From a virus: a DNA stretch of 39,228 nucleotides. Positions 7,262 through 35,617 of this stretch are shown in pieces. How positions within the stretch are numbered: the stretch's first letter is position 1; every line of letters begins with the position of its first letter. The stretch lies in the UHGV virus genome UHGV-0211791; one strand, given 5' to 3'. The notes under the pieces are model-generated. The model was not told where the DNA came from, made no database searches, and worked only from the letters and a program-made list of their open reading frames with translations. The position numbers were made by a program, and so were the translations under genes.

Positions 7262-8622
7262 ACTCCTATGGCTTCAAAATATACACCGGACCACGGGATG
7301 TCGACATTCGAGCTCATCCCGCACCCAAAAGAAGAATTGCTTATCACTTTCCCTCCAGCTCCGCAGACATTACTGCCCATGAATGCGCCAGGCATAGCAG
7401 GAGTAACAGTTAACGATAAAAAAGAAGAAGGAAATGCAATAGGTAGGTTCACAGTTGTGTAAGAGTTGTCACCAACATCAACAAAACCCCATTGTCTAAT
7501 CACTCCGGTCTCAAGGTTTTTCTCCCAAGAGATGGTATTTAATGATTTGCTGAATTTATTAGGTGGTGGGTTGTTTGGACCATAAACGCGCTGACCGTTC
7601 TCATAAATATATCGAGAAGCCCAGATATCATTTTGTGATACAACATCCTTACCAGCACCCGAGCGAACAAAGCCACCAGCATAGACGTTTCCTGTAACAC
7701 CAACACTGCCTCCAACGGTCAAATCAGAACCGACTGATGCAATGGAAGTCACAATTAAATTTCGTTGAGCATGAATATCTCTGCCAGCCCATACATCCTG
7801 AGCTGATGAAATATCTTTCCCGGCCCCAGATGTCACACTACCCGTAGCGGACATATTGCCGTTAAGAATGCCACCAGTTAAAGGATATGCCCCTACATCA
7901 CTGGCTGTTGGTTTCCTTTGGTCATGATAAATCTCCGTTGTTTCAGGCTGACCTGAATATGATTTGTGAGCAGCAAAAACGCGAATAGTGTCACCATAGG
8001 AAACCGCAAACTGCCCCCACTCCTGTGTTGTGGGGCCTGCGGATTCGATGGCAACAACACTTTCAGGATAAAGGGTGCCAGGCTGGAAGGGTTCGTAGAA
8101 AAAACTACCAACATGCTCTTTGCTTGCCGCACTTTGGCTATCTCGTGACCCTAACCCATAAGCCCCCTTAACAAGAGCATTTTGTAACCCAAGATATTGT
8201 ACTACCTCGCTCACAGACCCCTTCCCTATGATATTTCTCCCCACTAAGGTCAGGTCTGTAAGTGCCGCAACATCCGCGTCCGTAAAATAGGGGACTTTAT
8301 TCGGGCCAGTTTGCAACCCGGCGAGCGCTGTAAGCGTGGCATCCAGCGGCTGTGAAAGTGCATTCAGGGCTGCGATCAGTTTCGTTTCAAATCCAGACAG
8401 ACTGCCATCATCCAGTACATCACTATTGGTTTTGTCACTGATAAACTGAGCAAGTGCAGCTGCAACGAAAGATGCCTGCCGCAGGACTTTGTTAATTTCG
8501 CTAGCTTTTGCAACTCCTGCGGTAAAACCGGTTGAAAGGGCTGCCAGAACCTCATAGTCAGCCTGTGAAATAACGTTAGCCCCGCCAGCTATGGAGAAGG
8601 GTTTAAACTCGTTTTTTGCCAT
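7258..8622 (-). CDS. Side tail fibre protein. Conserved N-terminus with an AT-rich, swapped C-terminal receptor-binding part and an internal tandem repeat.
   Basis: N-terminus MAKNEFKPFSIAGGANVISQADYEVLAA is tail-fibre-like. Two roughly 40-aa repeats (GSVTSGAGKDISSAQDVWAGRDI / GGFVRSGAGKDVVSQNDIWASRYI). Confidence 0.8.
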   Translation of the reverse strand: MAKNEFKPFSIAGGANVISQADYEVLAALSTGFTAGVAKASEINKVLRQASFVAAALAQFISDKTNSDVLDDGSLSGFETKLIAALNALSQPLDATLTALAGLQTGPNKVPYFTDADVAALTDLTLVGRNIIGKGSVSEVVQYLGLQNALVKGAYGLGSRDSQSAASKEHVGSFFYEPFQPGTLYPESVVAIESAGPTTQEWGQFAVSYGDTIRVFAAHKSYSGQPETTEIYHDQRKPTASDVGAYPLTGGILNGNMSATGSVTSGAGKDISSAQDVWAGRDIHAQRNLIVTSIASVGSDLTVGGSVGVTGNVYAGGFVRSGAGKDVVSQNDIWASRYIYENGQRVYGPNNPPPNKFSKSLNTISWEKNLETGVIRQWGFVDVGDNSYTTVNLPIAFPSSFLSLTVTPAMPGAFMGSNVCGAGGKVISNSSFGCGMSSNVDIPWSGVYFEAIGV

Positions 8623-29532: not shown

Positions 29533-30546
29533 TCAGTCCAAATCCATCTCCACCACTTCACCGAACAGGTGACCGTAAACGTCCATTGTGGTTTTGATGT
29601 TCGAATGCCCAATAAGTCGGGAAACCTTCAGAATATCGACGCCTTTGTTTGCCAGGCGAGATACAGCAAAGTGGCGAAGATGATGGAATCGCTTAATGCC
29701 ATAGTCGTTCAGGGTTCTGACGAGAACGCCCTGAGTGCCGTAGCTGGTAGCGAGGCATGCGCCGGTAAACTGGTTGCAGATAAGAGGCTCAGAGGTACCG
29801 AGTTTACTTTTATCCAGCAACGCGAAAAGCTCACGCGGCATCCTTACCCGGCGCTCCACGCCTCTTTTCAGCCCCTCATGTATAACGCCGTCAACAACAT
29901 GCCCCCGGATGTCGATCCAGTCGGCTGACACGTCGTTATAAGTAACCGCCAGAGCCTCACCGATGCGCAGGCCACAAATCCCGAGCCAGCACGCGATACG
30001 CTCACGAACTGGCGCGTTATTCAGTAGCTCCCTGACCGATGATGATGGCGGTATGGTGATGGGTCGACGCTTCCGGCGCACGGGACGGTCAACAGGGTTA
30101 AAAGTGATGAGCCGCTTTTCTACCAGTAGGAAGAAAGCCGAACGAATCCAGCGATGGCAGCCGGTGCGTACCGAATCAACAATATCGCGATGGCTGATAT
30201 GGAGAATATTTTTTTCCAGTATCAGCCCGTCTACAGCGAGAAGATCGTGACGGCATTTCGTATAAGACGATAGTCGTATGATATTTTTTTCCAGCTTGCC
30301 GGCCTGATACCCCAGATAAAACAAAATTAACTTTCGAAAAGTCCAGGAATGGTCTATTCCGGTCCAGCTGGCAGTTCGACAATCCAGCTCGATATTCTGT
30401 TTTTGCCAGAAAAGATGTGCGGCATCATCAATATTCTTAAAGATGCGGCGGCGTCCATGACCGGATTTTTCATCCTTCCAGTGGACGTAATATTTTGATT
30501 GTCCATTGACATCAGTGGATTCTTTTATCGAAGCCATGCTGAACAA
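29533..30546 (-). CDS. Xer-like tyrosine recombinase (second recombinase, in the late region)
   Basis: Catalytic motifs GLRIGEAL, HHLRHFAVSRL and LIGHSNIKTTMDVYGHL match the XerC/D pattern (LLGHS..TT..YTH). Confidence 0.75.
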   Translation of the reverse strand: MFSMASIKESTDVNGQSKYYVHWKDEKSGHGRRRIFKNIDDAAHLFWQKQNIELDCRTASWTGIDHSWTFRKLILFYLGYQAGKLEKNIIRLSSYTKCRHDLLAVDGLILEKNILHISHRDIVDSVRTGCHRWIRSAFFLLVEKRLITFNPVDRPVRRKRRPITIPPSSSVRELLNNAPVRERIACWLGICGLRIGEALAVTYNDVSADWIDIRGHVVDGVIHEGLKRGVERRVRMPRELFALLDKSKLGTSEPLICNQFTGACLATSYGTQGVLVRTLNDYGIKRFHHLRHFAVSRLANKGVDILKVSRLIGHSNIKTTMDVYGHLFGEVVEMDLD

Positions 30547-31228: not shown

Positions 31229-31426
31229 CTATTTGTTCATTGGTGGAGTTTTTGGACCATTTGCCGGAGAACGCGGCTTTGGATAACAGTTCTGGCAATG
31301 GAGAGCTGGTGGATTTACTTGCACTCCACATTTATGACATTCACCTGGTGATTTGCCCTTAGCTGGGGCAGTGATCAAGACCACGATAAAAAGAGCCAGA
31401 ATTAAAGCGGGGATGGCAAGCATCAT
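31229..31426 (-). CDS. Small membrane protein with a C-terminal CxxC-x10-CxxC zinc ribbon (65 aa)
   Basis: N-terminal TM helix (LAIPALILALFIVVLITA). ATGA overlap with the Rz stop. Confidence 0.4.
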   Translation of the reverse strand: MMLAIPALILALFIVVLITAPAKGKSPGECHKCGVQVNPPALHCQNCYPKPRSPANGPKTPPMNK

Positions 31427-31938
31427 TTCCGGTCCTTCTCTATTTCACGTATTCCAGCCAGCTGGTTATTCGCTTTTTCGATAGCAGCCAGCAGCGGCTT
31501 GATCCAGAGAACAGCCTGGCAATACGTCAGCGTGCTGGGGGTAGTGGCGCTATCACCGGCTGCGTCAGCGTTGCCGGAATCAGTGTGCATTGCGCTGGCA
31601 CGTAGACGGTTCGTGTATTCGAGCAGCCCACCAGCGACATCAGCAGGAACAGGCAGATCACAGGTTTTTTCACGGCGGAGGATCTCCCGGTATTCGATAA
31701 CCGTGTTATCGGAGCTGGCATCAATCAGTGAATTGTTCCGGTTGGTATAGTCGGCAATCTGATTGAAACGATTGATGTTAAAAGCCTGAGTGGCTATCAC
31801 CTGCCGCTGGCCATCGACCTCTTGCTCTGCTTTTTCTGCCCTGCCACGCTGTTCGCTAACCTGCCCCAGCAGCACAAAAATAATGATTCCTGACAGCAGC
31901 AACTCAACGCCCAGAAGCAACCAGGTTTTCAGGGTCAT
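31423..31938 (-). CDS. Rz: Rz-like i-spanin
   Basis: N-terminal TM domain, coiled-coil periplasmic domain, position after the endolysin. Confidence 0.75.
   Translation of the reverse strand: MTLKTWLLLGVELLLSGIIIFVLLGQVSEQRGRAEKAEQEVDGQRQVIATQAFNINRFNQIADYTNRNNSLIDASSDNTVIEYREILRREKTCDLPVPADVAGGLLEYTNRLRASAMHTDSGNADAAGDSATTPSTLTYCQAVLWIKPLLAAIEKANNQLAGIREIEKDRK
31527..31724 (-). CDS. Rz1: Rz1-like o-spanin lipoprotein embedded in the +1 frame of Rz
   Basis: Lipobox LVGCS. Pro-rich C-terminus. Lies entirely within Rz. Start codon uncertain. Confidence 0.65.
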   Translation of the reverse strand: MMPAPITRLSNTGRSSAVKKPVICLFLLMSLVGCSNTRTVYVPAQCTLIPATLTQPVIAPLPPAR

Positions 31939-32465
31939 TTATCAAGCCCCCAGCACGCTAGTTCGGACTCCTGGTCACGACGTAGAACCTGCCCGTAACA
32001 ATTGTTAGAGCGGATACGACAATCGCGGCCACCGTCATAGATCCAGCGTTTTATCTCTGCGCAGGCACCGGTCCGATCACCAGCATTGAGTTTTCTCCAG
32101 AACGTTGACGGCAAACATTTTCCGGGACCGATGTTCCACGGGCAGAAAGACGCTATACCGACTTTTTGTGGCTCTGTCAGCGGAACTCGAACGTTTTTTT
32201 CCACCCAGGCCAAAGCTTTCGCCTGCTCAGCCTTGTCGATTTTGTCGCATTGCTCGCGAGTCAGCTGCATACCTTTAACAACTGGCTTACCATCGACGCG
32301 AGTTACGCCGCCGCAAATCGTCCATACACCACCGGCATCAGGGTAAGCTATCAGGCTTGTACCCTCTTTTTCTTCCTGAAACTGGCTCATAAGTACCGGT
32401 GCGGACGCGCCAGCGGCCAGCAGCCCAAGCATGGCAGCGCTGAGCTTGCTTTTAGTTGATGCCAT
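31935..32465 (-). CDS. R: SAR endolysin (P21 R21-like lysozyme with N-terminal signal-anchor-release domain)
   Basis: GVWTICGG and ACAEIKRWIYDGGR align with R21. N-terminal weakly hydrophobic Gly/Ala-rich SAR segment. Confidence 0.8.
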   Translation of the reverse strand: MASTKSKLSAAMLGLLAAGASAPVLMSQFQEEKEGTSLIAYPDAGGVWTICGGVTRVDGKPVVKGMQLTREQCDKIDKAEQAKALAWVEKNVRVPLTEPQKVGIASFCPWNIGPGKCLPSTFWRKLNAGDRTGACAEIKRWIYDGGRDCRIRSNNCYGQVLRRDQESELACWGLDK

Positions 32466-32467
32466 GA

Positions 32468-32716
32468 TTAGTTGTCCTGCGGTGGAGGGGTTACATAGCC
32501 ACGCGCCAGCGCTGCCTCATAGGCTTTTGTCTGGCGGCGTTTGAAGTAAAAGTTAACGAAGAAAGTCAGCAAGCCAATAACGAAGCCGCCGACGACTGCT
32601 ACAAGGTTCCAGTCAAGGTCATGTATCCATTTAGCTATGCCACCCCAGCAAATGAGGCCGCCGGATGTACAGTACCCCGCTATCGATGCGATTTTGTCAG
32701 GCATAGTTCTGTGCAT
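32468..32716 (-). CDS. S: Pinholin (S21-like, 2 TMD) with dual-start motif MHRTM
   Basis: LTFFVNFYFKRRQT against S21 LTYLTNLYFKIRED. Met1 and Met5 are separated by a basic residue. Confidence 0.75.
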   Translation of the reverse strand: MHRTMPDKIASIAGYCTSGGLICWGGIAKWIHDLDWNLVAVVGGFVIGLLTFFVNFYFKRRQTKAYEAALARGYVTPPPQDN

Positions 32717-32756: not shown

Positions 32757-33371
32757 TTAAATTCTGCGGAAAGCGTACGACGCGACGCCTTTACGCCCTA
32801 ACTGGCATTCGATTGTGTTTTGCTCTGCGCAGGTGAAGCCCTGCTCCGCAAACCAGCGCCTGATACCTTCATCAGTGAAATACCAGATATGCTCGTTCTT
32901 TCTGAAATGATGGGAACGGAGAATGTCACCGGCATCAGTGAAAATTGGGATCGACACGAATACGTATTCGCTGGCCTGCTGTACCGCCAGCTCTGGCTCG
33001 TCGATGTGCTCCAGTACATCCCACATCGTAAGAGCTCGCCACTGACAGGCGTAGAGGTCAGCGAATGCGCCCCGCTCGTTCAGCCAGGCGATACCAGCCG
33101 GATTAACGTCATACCCAAGCGTTCCCGGTCGGGTAGAAACGAACTGACCGGCACCGATACCAACGTCGAGAACAGGGCCGTGAAAATGGCGCTCCACCAG
33201 CTCAATACGTGATTGCGTTAAAGCTCTGCCCGTTTCGGTGTCGGCAAGTTGCTGATACTTCGCGAAATATTGTTCGTCATACGGGCGTGATGCCGGAACG
33301 GGGTAACGTCCGATCCCCAGCTCCGGTAAAAATACCAGCCCGCTTTCCAGTTCCTGATAAAACGACTTCAT
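32757..33371 (-). CDS. Class I SAM-dependent methyltransferase (start uncertain)
   Basis: Motif I VLDVGIGAGQF. Post-I DVLEHI. Confidence 0.7.
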   Translation of the reverse strand: MKSFYQELESGLVFLPELGIGRYPVPASRPYDEQYFAKYQQLADTETGRALTQSRIELVERHFHGPVLDVGIGAGQFVSTRPGTLGYDVNPAGIAWLNERGAFADLYACQWRALTMWDVLEHIDEPELAVQQASEYVFVSIPIFTDAGDILRSHHFRKNEHIWYFTDEGIRRWFAEQGFTCAEQNTIECQLGRKGVASYAFRRI

Positions 33372-34218
33372 GAAGCCAGGCCTCGAATTTATCGGAGAAA
33401 TTTGAAATCCGCTTGTCGCAGTGGTGATCCCATGCTTCACAGCGGCAGTAATTGTCGGGAATTGCCCAGCCAACCCGGGAGAGGTTCATCACTGGATCGG
33501 TGACGATTTCCGGCGCGTTATGACCACCGCGCCCACCAGCAACGACATACACCGGCGTTTTATAGGCAATAGCAGCAGGAAGCGCCCATCCCACCGGCGT
33601 AACCACCACGGCGGCATGTTCAACCAGGCGCATCAGTGATTTGAAGTTGAGCTGACCGGAGTGCATGCGCAGATCTGCTTCGGGAAGTTCACCGACGGAC
33701 CACTCCTCCCCCTCCTGCAGGTCAGCCACACTGATTACACAAAAATGCTTTCTCAGTAACCGGGATGCCTGCAACAGGTAATCTGGATCAGGATTACGGG
33801 AATCACTGCGCCATTCACTGCGAACAGTTGCCGGACGAATTACCGCGATCGGCTTTTCAGACGTAAATTCAGCTGGTCCGTAAGAGGGCAAATCAAGTTC
33901 TGACGGCTCGGTGCCAAACTGCTGGCGCATCGCGTCAAATATTGAACCGCGCCGAAGATGATCCGGACCGTAGAAAATCCGTTTTGTCTGGCGCATATCT
34001 GGCGACAGGTGAAAAGCGGCCTGCGTCCGGTACTCGTTTTTGCGCTGCGTGCGGAGCGTTGTAAAACTGCGAACGGGCAGAACGGGCAAATCTTCGTACA
34101 GTTCGGGCCAGGCGGTCCGGATATAAGTACCGGCGGGCAACTTCTTAACGAAAGCGCGCTGGTAGATGTTGTCACCCATGCCCAGCATGCCTTCAATGAA
34201 TAGAGGAACGTTCAACAT
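33277..34218 (-). CDS. GT9-like (heptosyltransferase-like) GT-B glycosyltransferase
   Basis: C-terminal VVVTPVGWALPAAIAYKTPVYVV resembles the GT9 motif ..NDSGPMHLAAALGTPTVAL. Confidence 0.5.
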   Translation of the reverse strand: MLNVPLFIEGMLGMGDNIYQRAFVKKLPAGTYIRTAWPELYEDLPVLPVRSFTTLRTQRKNEYRTQAAFHLSPDMRQTKRIFYGPDHLRRGSIFDAMRQQFGTEPSELDLPSYGPAEFTSEKPIAVIRPATVRSEWRSDSRNPDPDYLLQASRLLRKHFCVISVADLQEGEEWSVGELPEADLRMHSGQLNFKSLMRLVEHAAVVVTPVGWALPAAIAYKTPVYVVAGGRGGHNAPEIVTDPVMNLSRVGWAIPDNYCRCEAWDHHCDKRISNFSDKFEAWLHEVVLSGTGKRAGIFTGAGDRTLPRSGITPV

Positions 34219-34223
34219 GCTAC

Positions 34224-34763
34224 CTAGCGTAAAGCCTCATTGAGGCTGAGCCGCCGAAAGCACTTTAGCGCTGTCTGGTGGCTACTGTTGATAATATTAA
34301 CCTTCCCGGCCAGCGTTCTGGCGGTATTGGCAAACTCAGCGCGCCATCGCGTAACACTCTCTGCTGTAGGGTTATCCAGCCCGACGTGATCACCATGCCA
34401 GTGACTGCCGCCATTTATGGAGCAGTCAAACCCTAACAGGATGATGTTTTTTGCCCCCAAGCTGGCAGCAAAGAGAATCGAGCGCTGCCCGGAGTTGAAG
34501 GCCCAGCGGGTATCTGTATCAAACAGATTTAGCCCGTAGCGTTTATGAGCCCGGTAATTACAGGTCCAGCAAGAGGCAGAGGAAGGCAGAACATCGATGT
34601 TTGCATCCCACCAGCGCAGATCACCCGCGTAAATATATTCACAATCAGGCACGGCTCGCCAGGTGGAGTTAACAGCAATAACCGGCAGCCCCGATCCGGA
34701 GATCAGTTCGCAATCTGATTTATTGAGAGATGGGCCGGATGCACAAATGATGAATGTGTTCAT
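34224..34763 (-). CDS. DUF115/MptE-like (Maf-type) putative transferase, 179 aa
   Basis: N-terminal IICASGPSL resembles the G-x-GPSL motif of DUF115 proteins. From memory and tentative. Confidence 0.35.
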   Translation of the reverse strand: MNTFIICASGPSLNKSDCELISGSGLPVIAVNSTWRAVPDCEYIYAGDLRWWDANIDVLPSSASCWTCNYRAHKRYGLNLFDTDTRWAFNSGQRSILFAASLGAKNIILLGFDCSINGGSHWHGDHVGLDNPTAESVTRWRAEFANTARTLAGKVNIINSSHQTALKCFRRLSLNEALR

Positions 34764-34770
34764 GCATGAG

Positions 34771-35094
34771 CTACTTAATTTTATCTACCCATTCACGCCA
34801 GCGCGCCTCGCGAATTTCTGGGGGCAACCGCTGATCTTCAAAATGGTCAGACAAATTTATTGAATCTGGAAGCAACGCCCAGGCAACATAGAACTCATGC
34901 GGTTCGAACTCGCCACCAGCAAACTCGTATGCACCGACGTGGTAAACTTCACCATCTTCTTCGAATGCCAATACGTGGGCAATATGCCAGCCATCGCAGG
35001 GGTTAAGCAGAAGAACCCATTTACCGTCGAGTTCCTGCGTCAATTTTTCGCTGGCGGGACGAAAAACCAATTGCTCAGTAATTTGTTGAGACAT
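34771..35094 (-). CDS. Hypothetical protein, first gene of the late operon (107 aa from ATG 35094)
   Basis: ORF. The longer ORF-track form would overlap the pR'/tR' region. Confidence 0.4.
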   Translation of the reverse strand: MSQQITEQLVFRPASEKLTQELDGKWVLLLNPCDGWHIAHVLAFEEDGEVYHVGAYEFAGGEFEPHEFYVAWALLPDSINLSDHFEDQRLPPEIREARWREWVDKIK

Positions 35095-35099
35095 GCTGG

Positions 35100-35210
35100 C
35101 TCCAGAAACGACAAAGCCCCACCATTTCTGGCAGGGCTCGATTATTAAGCGTTGTGTCGAAGTGACCACTCTTAACAGGATATTCCGTTTTTTACGTACG
35201 TAAACACTTT
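35100..35210 (-). promoter_or_regulatory. Candidate late promoter pR'/qut and tR' region downstream of Q
   Basis: 110-bp AT-rich spacer with hairpin AGCCC-N14-GGGCT followed by TTGTCGTTTCT. Position analogous to lambda pR'. Confidence 0.3.
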
Positions 35211-35617
35211 TATTTACCAGCCACCAATTTAGTTTCTGGCTCCCGTGATACATACCTGTCCATCTCAAGCCTTACATCAAGCATCATCAACATGCCTTCA
35301 ACAACCCCTTCGGCCTTCTGAAGCTTTTTACCGATATGTCCGTCGGAGCAACCATGCTTGCGGGCCAGCGCCATAAACGTCATGCCCATCACATAATAAT
35401 CCACCAGCAAATCATGCAGGTCCTGGTTATTTTTATTCAGCCTGGCGATGCACCCGCAGATGACCATCGCATCATCATCACAACATTGTGGCCGCGATTT
35501 TACCCTGGCCGGAAGAAGTCCTTTAAATCCAGCGGCAATCGGTGCCCAGGCAACATCTTCATGATTATTGGCCGCCCATGCGCCCCAGCGTTCTAATACC
35601 TGTTGGATGTCCCGCAT
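35210..35617 (-). CDS. Q: Late antiterminator Q (21/82/DLP12 quuD-type)
   Basis: [21 protein letters not shown]...[12 protein letters not shown]...LVDYYV matches this Q family. TAATG coupling to the primase. Confidence 0.8.

Follow-up and report, generated by a model that had tools for sequence, protein, structure and literature searches.

A mobile three-gene cassette in late operons of Proteobacteria phages encodes a predicted glycan-building system that may act on virion proteins

The virus genome UHGV-0211791, analysed here over its whole stretch of 39,228 nucleotides (the window), carries three adjacent genes for predicted sugar- and methyl-transferring enzymes between its Q-type late antiterminator and its holin. 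All three lie on the minus strand and encode a Maf/DUF115-like glycosyltransferase core of 179 aa (34224-34763), a GT9/TibC-like glycosyltransferase of the GT-B type of 313 aa (33277-34218), and a class I S-adenosylmethionine (SAM)-dependent methyltransferase of 204 aa counted from its ATG (32757-33371). This trio is a self-contained mobile cassette and forms one functional unit, since its genes co-occur in 85 sources and in 37 prophage loci and are fused to one another in some lineages. It is very probably a late-expressed cassette for building a glycan. Our preferred reading, to which we give a probability of roughly 50%, is that the trio glycosylates and O-methylates a virion protein late in infection, using nucleotide sugars of the host.

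The 85 sources comprise the window and 84 fetched loci; IMG/VR contained more than 540 contigs with a relative of the GT9-like protein, and 80 of these were fetched for locus comparison. Relatives were recovered by protein-level search only; at the nucleotide level, the region had no megablast match among 50,697 phage genomes. The Maf-like and GT9-like genes were present in all 85 sources and the methyltransferase gene in 84, the exception being a contig end. Their order (Maf-like, GT9-like, methyltransferase) was nearly invariant. The initial annotation of this DNA had raised the possibility that the cluster is pseudogenised in relatives; the relatives proved intact, with all three open reading frames (ORFs) whole in 82 sources and a split ORF in two loci. 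Among bacterial genomes the trio was found in 37 prophage loci, nearly all in Proteobacteria, with carriers in Enterobacterales, Bordetella, Castellaniella, Cellvibrio, Methylophaga, Alcanivorax, Mesorhizobium and Phenylobacterium. The closest bacterial-genome match was in Pseudocitrobacter (98%), and carriers also included prophages of Enterobacter and Pantoea and D3-like Pseudomonas phages. The 29 phage-genome protein matches all came from phages of Gram-negative hosts. In E. coli the trio is rare (about nine matches among 5,426 genomes), and in the E. coli loci examined it lies between differing antiterminators and differing lysis cassettes. Neither NCBIfam nor PADLOC returned a match for any of the three enzymes or for the 107-aa product of the gene that precedes them. 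An 800-kb contig titled Chryseobacterium sp. 18061 (L099) carries a trio 87% identical to the enterobacterial version, a label that probably reflects a mislabelled or contaminated assembly. Matches in metagenome-assembled genomes of Paceibacterota, Acidimicrobiia and Dehalococcoidia, on short contigs of 4-39 kb, may be binning artefacts.

Natural fusions also link the genes of the cassette to each other and to other glycan enzymes. The Maf-like and GT9-like proteins are joined in a single ORF in several lineages, and other fused partners are Methyltransf_11, LicD and bona fide GT9 domains, with LicD::GT9-like and Methyltransf_11::GT9-like proteins present in the representative library (P0283, P0313). 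In environmental siphoviruses the Maf-like and GT9-like genes flank an inserted bona fide GT9 gene (PF01075; L091, 7169-8011), and in a prophage of Methylophaga sp. OBS4 a gene for a carbohydrate-type sulfotransferase (Sulfotransfer_2) lies between the GT9-like and methyltransferase genes (L122, 6716-7411). The recruitment of sulfotransferase, LicD and GT9 tailoring enzymes into some versions argues for a role of the cassette in glycan assembly. The trio is nevertheless dispensable accessory cargo, because an E. coli prophage with approximately 96% identical structural genes proceeds directly from Q to its holins without it. The trio-less relative in E. coli Sx181-0-1 (L090, 2651-3412), whose structural genes are nearly identical, differs in its early region, which includes a TIR-domain protein, a DNA polymerase and a VapE-type primase; this is an example of modules being exchanged while the morphogenesis block stays constant.

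The genomic settings of the cassette vary, and in every locus with identifiable flanking genes it lies in a late or structural operon. The order Q, cassette, lysis genes was seen in 53 of the 85 sources, with the antiterminators falling into at least four unrelated families and the holins into at least four, and the order lysis genes, cassette, terminase in 13 to 20. In the Pseudomonas phages D3, PAJU2 and Psp6 and in Enterobacter phage Mulvp2, the trio is found between the major capsid gene and genes for head-tail connector, head-closure or tail proteins; this placement recurs in environmental siphoviruses and in prophages of Bordetella, Methylophaga and Cellvibrio. In D3, adaptor and head-closure genes separate the Maf-like gene from the other two. 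The GT9-like and methyltransferase genes follow the neck gene gp14 in a T4-like cyanophage, and the trio forms an isolated operon in a 265-kb jumbo Klebsiella phage. These arrangements suggest that the cassette is expressed late in every context seen. Jumbo and T4-like phages are normally virulent types, and the presence of the genes in both points to a role in the lytic cycle and not in lysogenic conversion. We considered conversion of the gtrABC/Oac type and rejected it, as the enzymes are soluble, the operon is late and normally virulent phage types carry it. No sugar-nucleotide biosynthesis genes were found next to the trio at any locus examined.

In the window, every gene of the region from helicase through Rz is on the minus strand. 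Downstream of the Q-type antiterminator (35210-35617; PF06530, E 7.2e-54; phrog_79) lies a candidate pR'/tR' region (35104-35185), delimited by consensus scan, sequence and RNA fold. Between the Q stop codon and the ATG of the 107-aa ORF it contains hexamers that resemble promoter elements and a GC-rich hairpin of 11 bp (35139-35114), present in both the minimum free energy and centroid structures, followed by a U-rich tract to 35104 that stops 10 nt upstream of this first cargo ATG. The region looks like a pR'/tR' arrangement, with the promoter assignment tentative and its exact position uncertain. The four cargo genes are then separated by gaps of 7 and 5 nt and a 95-nt overlap of the GT9-like and methyltransferase genes (33277-33371), which is annotated likewise in the E. 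coli relatives L001 and L002, and 40 nt separate the methyltransferase stop codon from the holin gene. A scan for promoters and terminators within the cargo genes found internal sites no more frequent than in shuffled sequence. Given this tight packing and the lack of excess internal promoter- or terminator-like sites, the cargo genes should be co-transcribed with the lysis genes. All four are genuine genes and not chance ORFs, because they match PHROG profiles (E 6e-81, 2e-110, 1e-50 and 4e-61) and AlphaFold2 models of their products have high predicted local distance difference test (pLDDT) values of 92 (313-aa protein) and 90. The initial annotation had described four genes between Q with its pR' region and the holin, and was correct in coordinates, gene count and slot; the late co-transcription it proposed is supported by the position from Q to holin and by the tight packing. 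Its description of the phage as lambdoid applies to the regulation, but the structural module has a contractile tail.

One of the four genes does not belong to the cassette. The 107-aa ORF (34771-35094; phrog_17248) starts with an ATG at 35094 preceded by GGAG and encodes an acidic protein (isoelectric point, pI, 4.6) whose homologues are without a name and occur exclusively in Enterobacterales. It accompanies the trio in only three of the 85 sources, and we therefore rejected it as a fourth member; it is an independent small prophage gene, unrelated to the neighbouring cargo. The cluster of four originally proposed is thus reduced to the trio of enzymes. Members of the 107-aa family sometimes share a prophage with the trio without adjoining it, as in Hafnia alvei (I6H07_07460, I6H07_07495).

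The 313-aa protein had no Pfam match at E <= 0.01, PF01075 included, and no NCBIfam or PADLOC family; it belongs to phrog_6804 (E 2e-110). An AlphaFold model built from 45 homologues (the pLDDT 92 model above) predicts a two-lobe GT-B fold closest to heptosyltransferases. Three of its five strong structural neighbours are GT9-family proteins, and two of these are the lipopolysaccharide (LPS) heptosyltransferases WaaF and WaaC. Searched against PDB sequences, the family profile retrieved WaaF alone, at a sub-threshold E of 0.54, and the GT9-like C-terminal stretch aligns weakly to WaaF. When 1.84 billion cluster representatives (50% identity) were searched with the family profile, 870 members were obtained at E <= 1e-3, a bounded family that did not merge into GT9 proper. 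As judged from the model, the protein is therefore GT9/TibC-like by fold and by sequence a member of neither family. Invariant in the family are G13, G15 and D16 near the N-terminus and a Cys3-His cluster (C258/C260/H265/C267). By its position D16 would correspond to the catalytic Asp of GT9 enzymes and TibC, Asp110 in TibC (PMC4358343), and by this analogy is a candidate catalytic base. The last 27 or so residues have a pLDDT of 43-47, are encoded in the overlap with the methyltransferase gene, and are absent from the homologues of about 285 aa outside the closest enteric clade.

Comparison with the two nearest characterised groups shows where this enzyme departs from them. Identity to TibC/Aah, the bacterial autotransporter heptosyltransferases (BAHT; PDB 4rap), is 11%. 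TibC has an N-terminal beta-barrel, a thumb consisting of a beta-hairpin, plus an iron finger in the C-lobe formed by four cysteines, Cys339/342/358/370 (PMC4358343), whereas the phage protein lacks the barrel, its catalytic lobe starting at residue 6, and in place of the finger has the Cys3-His cluster with other spacing, which may be an analogous metal site. The N-lobe of the model has four strands, as reported for TibC (PMC4358343). BAHT genes adjoin the gene of their autotransporter substrate; the trio loci examined have phage regulatory, lysis, terminase or head/neck genes as neighbours instead. The GT9 enzymes WaaC and WaaF (PF01075) act on the LPS core, whereas the 313-aa protein is encoded by phages and has no linkage to LPS core loci. 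A fold search of BFVD showed that other phages encode bona fide RfaF-type and Aah/TibC-type enzymes.

The 179-aa protein carries an ASGPSL sequence, and the motifs GPSL, GFD and SHWHGDH show little or no variation in its family. Its score against PF01973 (32.8 bits, E 7.5e-8) lies below the gathering cutoff of 34.6, and most of its homologues have a precomputed PF01973 match. With the family profile, PDB sequences yielded Cst-II only, below threshold, so that fold comparison was needed; this supported a Maf-type catalytic fold at the level of the model. Compared with Maf flagellin glycosyltransferases and GT42 sialyltransferases (PDB 5mu5, Cst-I/II), the phage protein is the catalytic core only, a single domain, whereas the Maf chain (632 residues) has additional flanking domains. 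Neither flagellin genes nor genes for nonulosonic-acid biosynthesis were found near the trio in any locus examined.

The methyltransferase ORF, which extends mechanically up to a TTG at 33473, matches PF13489 (39.9 bits, cutoff 27; phrog_6564). It has the sequence VLDVGIGAGQF, of which D69, G71, G73 and G75 in DVGIGAG are invariant in an alignment of 15 family members, together with a WDxLEH motif. Although phmmer found no match in PDB, the profile of the family retrieved UbiG-type O-methyltransferases as its sole matches below E 0.01 (E 0.005). Neither DNA-methyltransferase motif IV ((D/N/S)PP(Y/F/W)) nor the cytosine-5 PCQ motif occurs in the 15-member alignment. By its motifs the protein is assigned to the class I SAM-dependent methyltransferases and is predicted to be small-molecule- or O-methyltransferase-like. 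The three enzymes have pI values of 7.7, 8.2 and 5.3 and are soluble and globular, without membrane segments. Thus the GPSL, VLDVGIGAG and GT9-like C-terminal motifs reported initially are present, and the DUF115/Maf-like, class I SAM and GT9-like assignments made from them hold in Pfam, fold comparison and PDB profiles.

From the genes, folds, layout, synteny, fusions and distribution we infer the following activity, donors and acceptor. In the late lytic phase, RNA polymerase modified by Q would pass the terminator downstream of Q, and one transcript would run from the 107-aa gene through the trio and on through the lysis genes. The three soluble enzymes would act in the cytoplasm on nucleotide sugars from the host. 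The GT-B enzyme, with Asp16 of its G-x-G-D motif as candidate base, would use ADP-heptose or a similar nucleoside diphosphate sugar by analogy with GT9 enzymes and TibC, and the Maf/sialyltransferase-like enzyme would transfer an ulosonic acid from its CMP-activated form. This would be 3-deoxy-D-manno-oct-2-ulosonic acid (Kdo) in hosts without pathways for pseudaminic (Pse), legionaminic (Leg) or neuraminic (Neu) acids; for most hosts of these phages the donor would be CMP-Kdo. The methyltransferase would cap or decorate the sugar, and the short methylated glycan would be placed on a capsid or neck-region protein during concurrent assembly, giving a glycosylated particle. The lack of adjacent sugar biosynthesis genes and the Gram-negative hosts (29 of 29) fit host-supplied donors; ADP-heptose and CMP-Kdo are made for the LPS inner core by nearly all Gram-negative hosts. 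A more specific version, which we consider unlikely, has ADP-heptose (used by the TibC/GT9-like enzyme) and CMP-Kdo (used by the Maf-like enzyme) building a methylated, LPS 'core-like' glycan on capsid or neck proteins, sulfated or phosphocholine-bearing in some lineages and widespread in phages of Proteobacteria.

That the acceptor is a virion protein is suggested by the recurrent placement of the cassette after the capsid gene or among neck genes, by the resemblance of both transferases to protein O-glycosyltransferases, and by the database entry for PAJU2, where ORF010, the Maf-like member, is termed a 'structural protein'. Several observations weigh on the other side, and we regard the odds for such an acceptor as even. 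The carriers have unrelated capsids (DUF2184-type here, HK97-type in D3) and unrelated tails, so no common target protein is evident. We found no structural protein that co-varies with the trio, and the near-identical structural module of the E. coli prophage described above exists without it. Late-operon junctions also serve as insertion sites for morons in general, so position by itself is weak evidence. The structural score of TibC is barely above those of the LPS heptosyltransferases, and the DUF115 superfamily also includes pyrophosphokinases. In the GT-B family the consensus is GGVGW at the spot of the GT9 'DSG', and the Asp of that motif, which from the WaaC literature we take to be heptose-binding, is not conserved, so ADP-heptose may not be the donor. 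Finally, a preprint on the cryo-electron microscopy (cryo-EM) structure of the D3 capsid mentions no glycan, though it concerns capsid assembly and not a search for glycans. Virion modification as initially proposed is thus strengthened by the head/neck placement and by the normally virulent carriers, and remains a conditional assignment with respect to its acceptor.

The PAJU2 annotation (AP009624; L004) is itself unusual. In the fetched 17.6-kb stretch the only ORFs labelled 'structural protein' apart from ORF010 (7780-8349) are the capsid protein ORF003 and the major tail protein ORF015, and an enzyme-fold protein appearing as a virion band is puzzling. On a PAJU2-like contig (L094), a collagen-repeat protein of 329 aa (PF01391; 6119-7108) is encoded two genes upstream of the trio, and the corresponding protein in PAJU2 may be ORF007 (334 aa). 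In other systems, collagen-like fibres are known to be glycosylated. We considered this head-region protein as a general acceptor and rejected it, as it belongs to one lineage and is absent from most carriers.

Other targets were weighed against the same evidence. Modification of the LPS inner core, or of another envelope glycoconjugate of the dying host, would block readsorption to debris or alter the envelope before lysis. The relation of the GT-B fold to GT9 enzymes including WaaF and WaaC, the exclusively Gram-negative known hosts and the proximity to lysis genes in most enteric loci would suit such a role. However, soluble enzymes without membrane segments would be expected to reach only nascent LPS at the inner membrane in the minutes before lysis, so the bulk of the surface LPS would stay unmodified. 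Receptor-binding equipment also differs widely among carriers (myovirus fibres here, D3-like siphoviruses, a jumbo phage, a cyanophage), the usual home of the cassette outside enterics is among head/neck genes and not in the lysis neighbourhood, and the trio has none of the features of lysogenic-conversion loci, namely membrane proteins, proximity to att/int and expression in the lysogen. We therefore consider LPS modification at lysis, which had been offered initially alongside virion modification, improbable and the weaker of those two proposals. An action on a host protein or small molecule, such as a nucleotide-sugar metabolite or an assembly or defence factor, possibly with the Maf-like protein as a DUF115-type pyrophosphokinase, would draw on the kinases in that superfamily. 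The fusion to the GT-B enzyme, the strict co-occurrence and the other glycan-tailoring enzymes point to glycan assembly instead, late timing is poor for counter-defence, PADLOC and NCBIfam gave no match, and Maf is the better match than the kinases. This explanation is likewise doubtful.

Hypermodification of phage DNA has in its favour that phages whose capsids and tails are unrelated would all share DNA as a target. The trio would in this case glycosylate and methylate DNA after replication and before packaging, protecting it from restriction in the manner of Mom, itself expressed late, or of phage GT-B enzymes placing Kdo or heptose on 5-hydroxymethylcytosine (5hmC), and late expression suits such a step before packaging. 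There is precedent, in that phage GT-B enzymes add Kdo-like and other unusual sugars to 5hmC DNA (preprint 10.1101/2023.12.21.572611). However, no genes generating 5hmC or 5-hydroxymethyluracil (5hmU), whether a cytosine methyltransferase/TET pair or a hydroxymethylase, were found in the prophage or beside the cassette in the loci examined. The methyltransferase lacks DNA-methyltransferase motifs and its PDB matches below E 0.01 are of the UbiG type only, the GT-B enzyme is unlike T4 glucosyltransferase, the enzymes are not markedly basic, and the added sulfotransferase and LicD are typical of protein- or lipid-linked glycans. We consider DNA as the target quite improbable, and glycosylation of a virion protein remains our preferred reading.

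Upstream of Q are genes for a helicase (38216-36588) and a primase (36591-35617). Downstream is a lysis cassette (31423-32716; PF04971, PF00959, phrog_214) consisting of a P21-type holin (32468-32716), a lysozyme (31935-32465) and Rz (31423-31938), with an embedded Rz1-like ORF (31527-31724) bearing a lipobox-like LVGC. The P21-type holin and the hydrophobic N-terminus of the lysozyme (AAMLGLLAAGASAPVLM) look like a pinholin/SAR (signal-arrest-release) endolysin pair. A tyrosine recombinase gene (29533-30546), oriented like the late genes, separates the lysis cassette from the terminase genes and is kept in the E. coli relative, where a further integrase-type gene with an Arm DNA-binding domain is annotated beyond the early-region genes.

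The slot between Q and the lysis genes of lambdoid phages carries stx in Stx phages and nmpC in DLP12. The trio occupies the same slot, downstream of Q and the terminator and upstream of the holin, but its products are enzymes, whereas stx and nmpC encode a toxin and a porin directed at the host or its environment. This slot is one of several homes of the trio, because the cassette also occurs in head/neck blocks and in normally virulent phage types. Loci of the gtrABC/Oac type encode membrane enzymes, lie near att/int and are expressed from the prophage, unlike the soluble enzymes of these late operons. The closest functional analogy, and a precedent, appears to be virion glycosylation in mycobacteriophages, whose genes reportedly comprise tandem glycosyltransferases and an O-methyltransferase. 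Like the trio, that system lacks its own sugar biosynthesis genes; the trio sits with structural or late genes. The mycobacteriophage hosts are Actinobacteria and the modification has been shown, whereas the hosts of the trio are Proteobacteria and its modification is a predicted one; homology of the enzymes is not expected. In a passage of PMC11600133 that cites Freeman et al. 2023, mycobacteriophage-encoded virion glycosylation is stated to weaken the neutralising-antibody response. Our literature search, directed at the function of the trio and at PAJU2 and D3, found no functional study of the trio and only an annotation-level mention in a survey of P. aeruginosa prophages (PMC10449497), and no description of phage-encoded virion glycosylation for phages of Enterobacterales or Pseudomonas. 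The genes have been annotated as 'hypothetical' since the D3 genome.

The proposal is readily testable, as the cassette is dispensable, the carriers D3 and PAJU2 can be cultured and host mutants without ADP-heptose exist. Functionally, the trio would amount to a novel version of virion glycosylation by phages, with different enzymes and in a different host phylum; its fold superfamilies are known, and it would not be categorically new. If the more specific version with ADP-heptose and CMP-Kdo is true, this would be the first virion glycosylation described in enteric and Pseudomonas temperate phages, and it would affect particle stability, self-adsorption or immune recognition in phage therapy. 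Were virions decorated, cryo-EM and proteomic data for trio-carrying phages would need re-reading and the pharmacology of phage therapy would be affected. Such decoration would also represent new protein-glycosylation chemistry, possibly extending heptose or Kdo on proteins beyond autotransporters.

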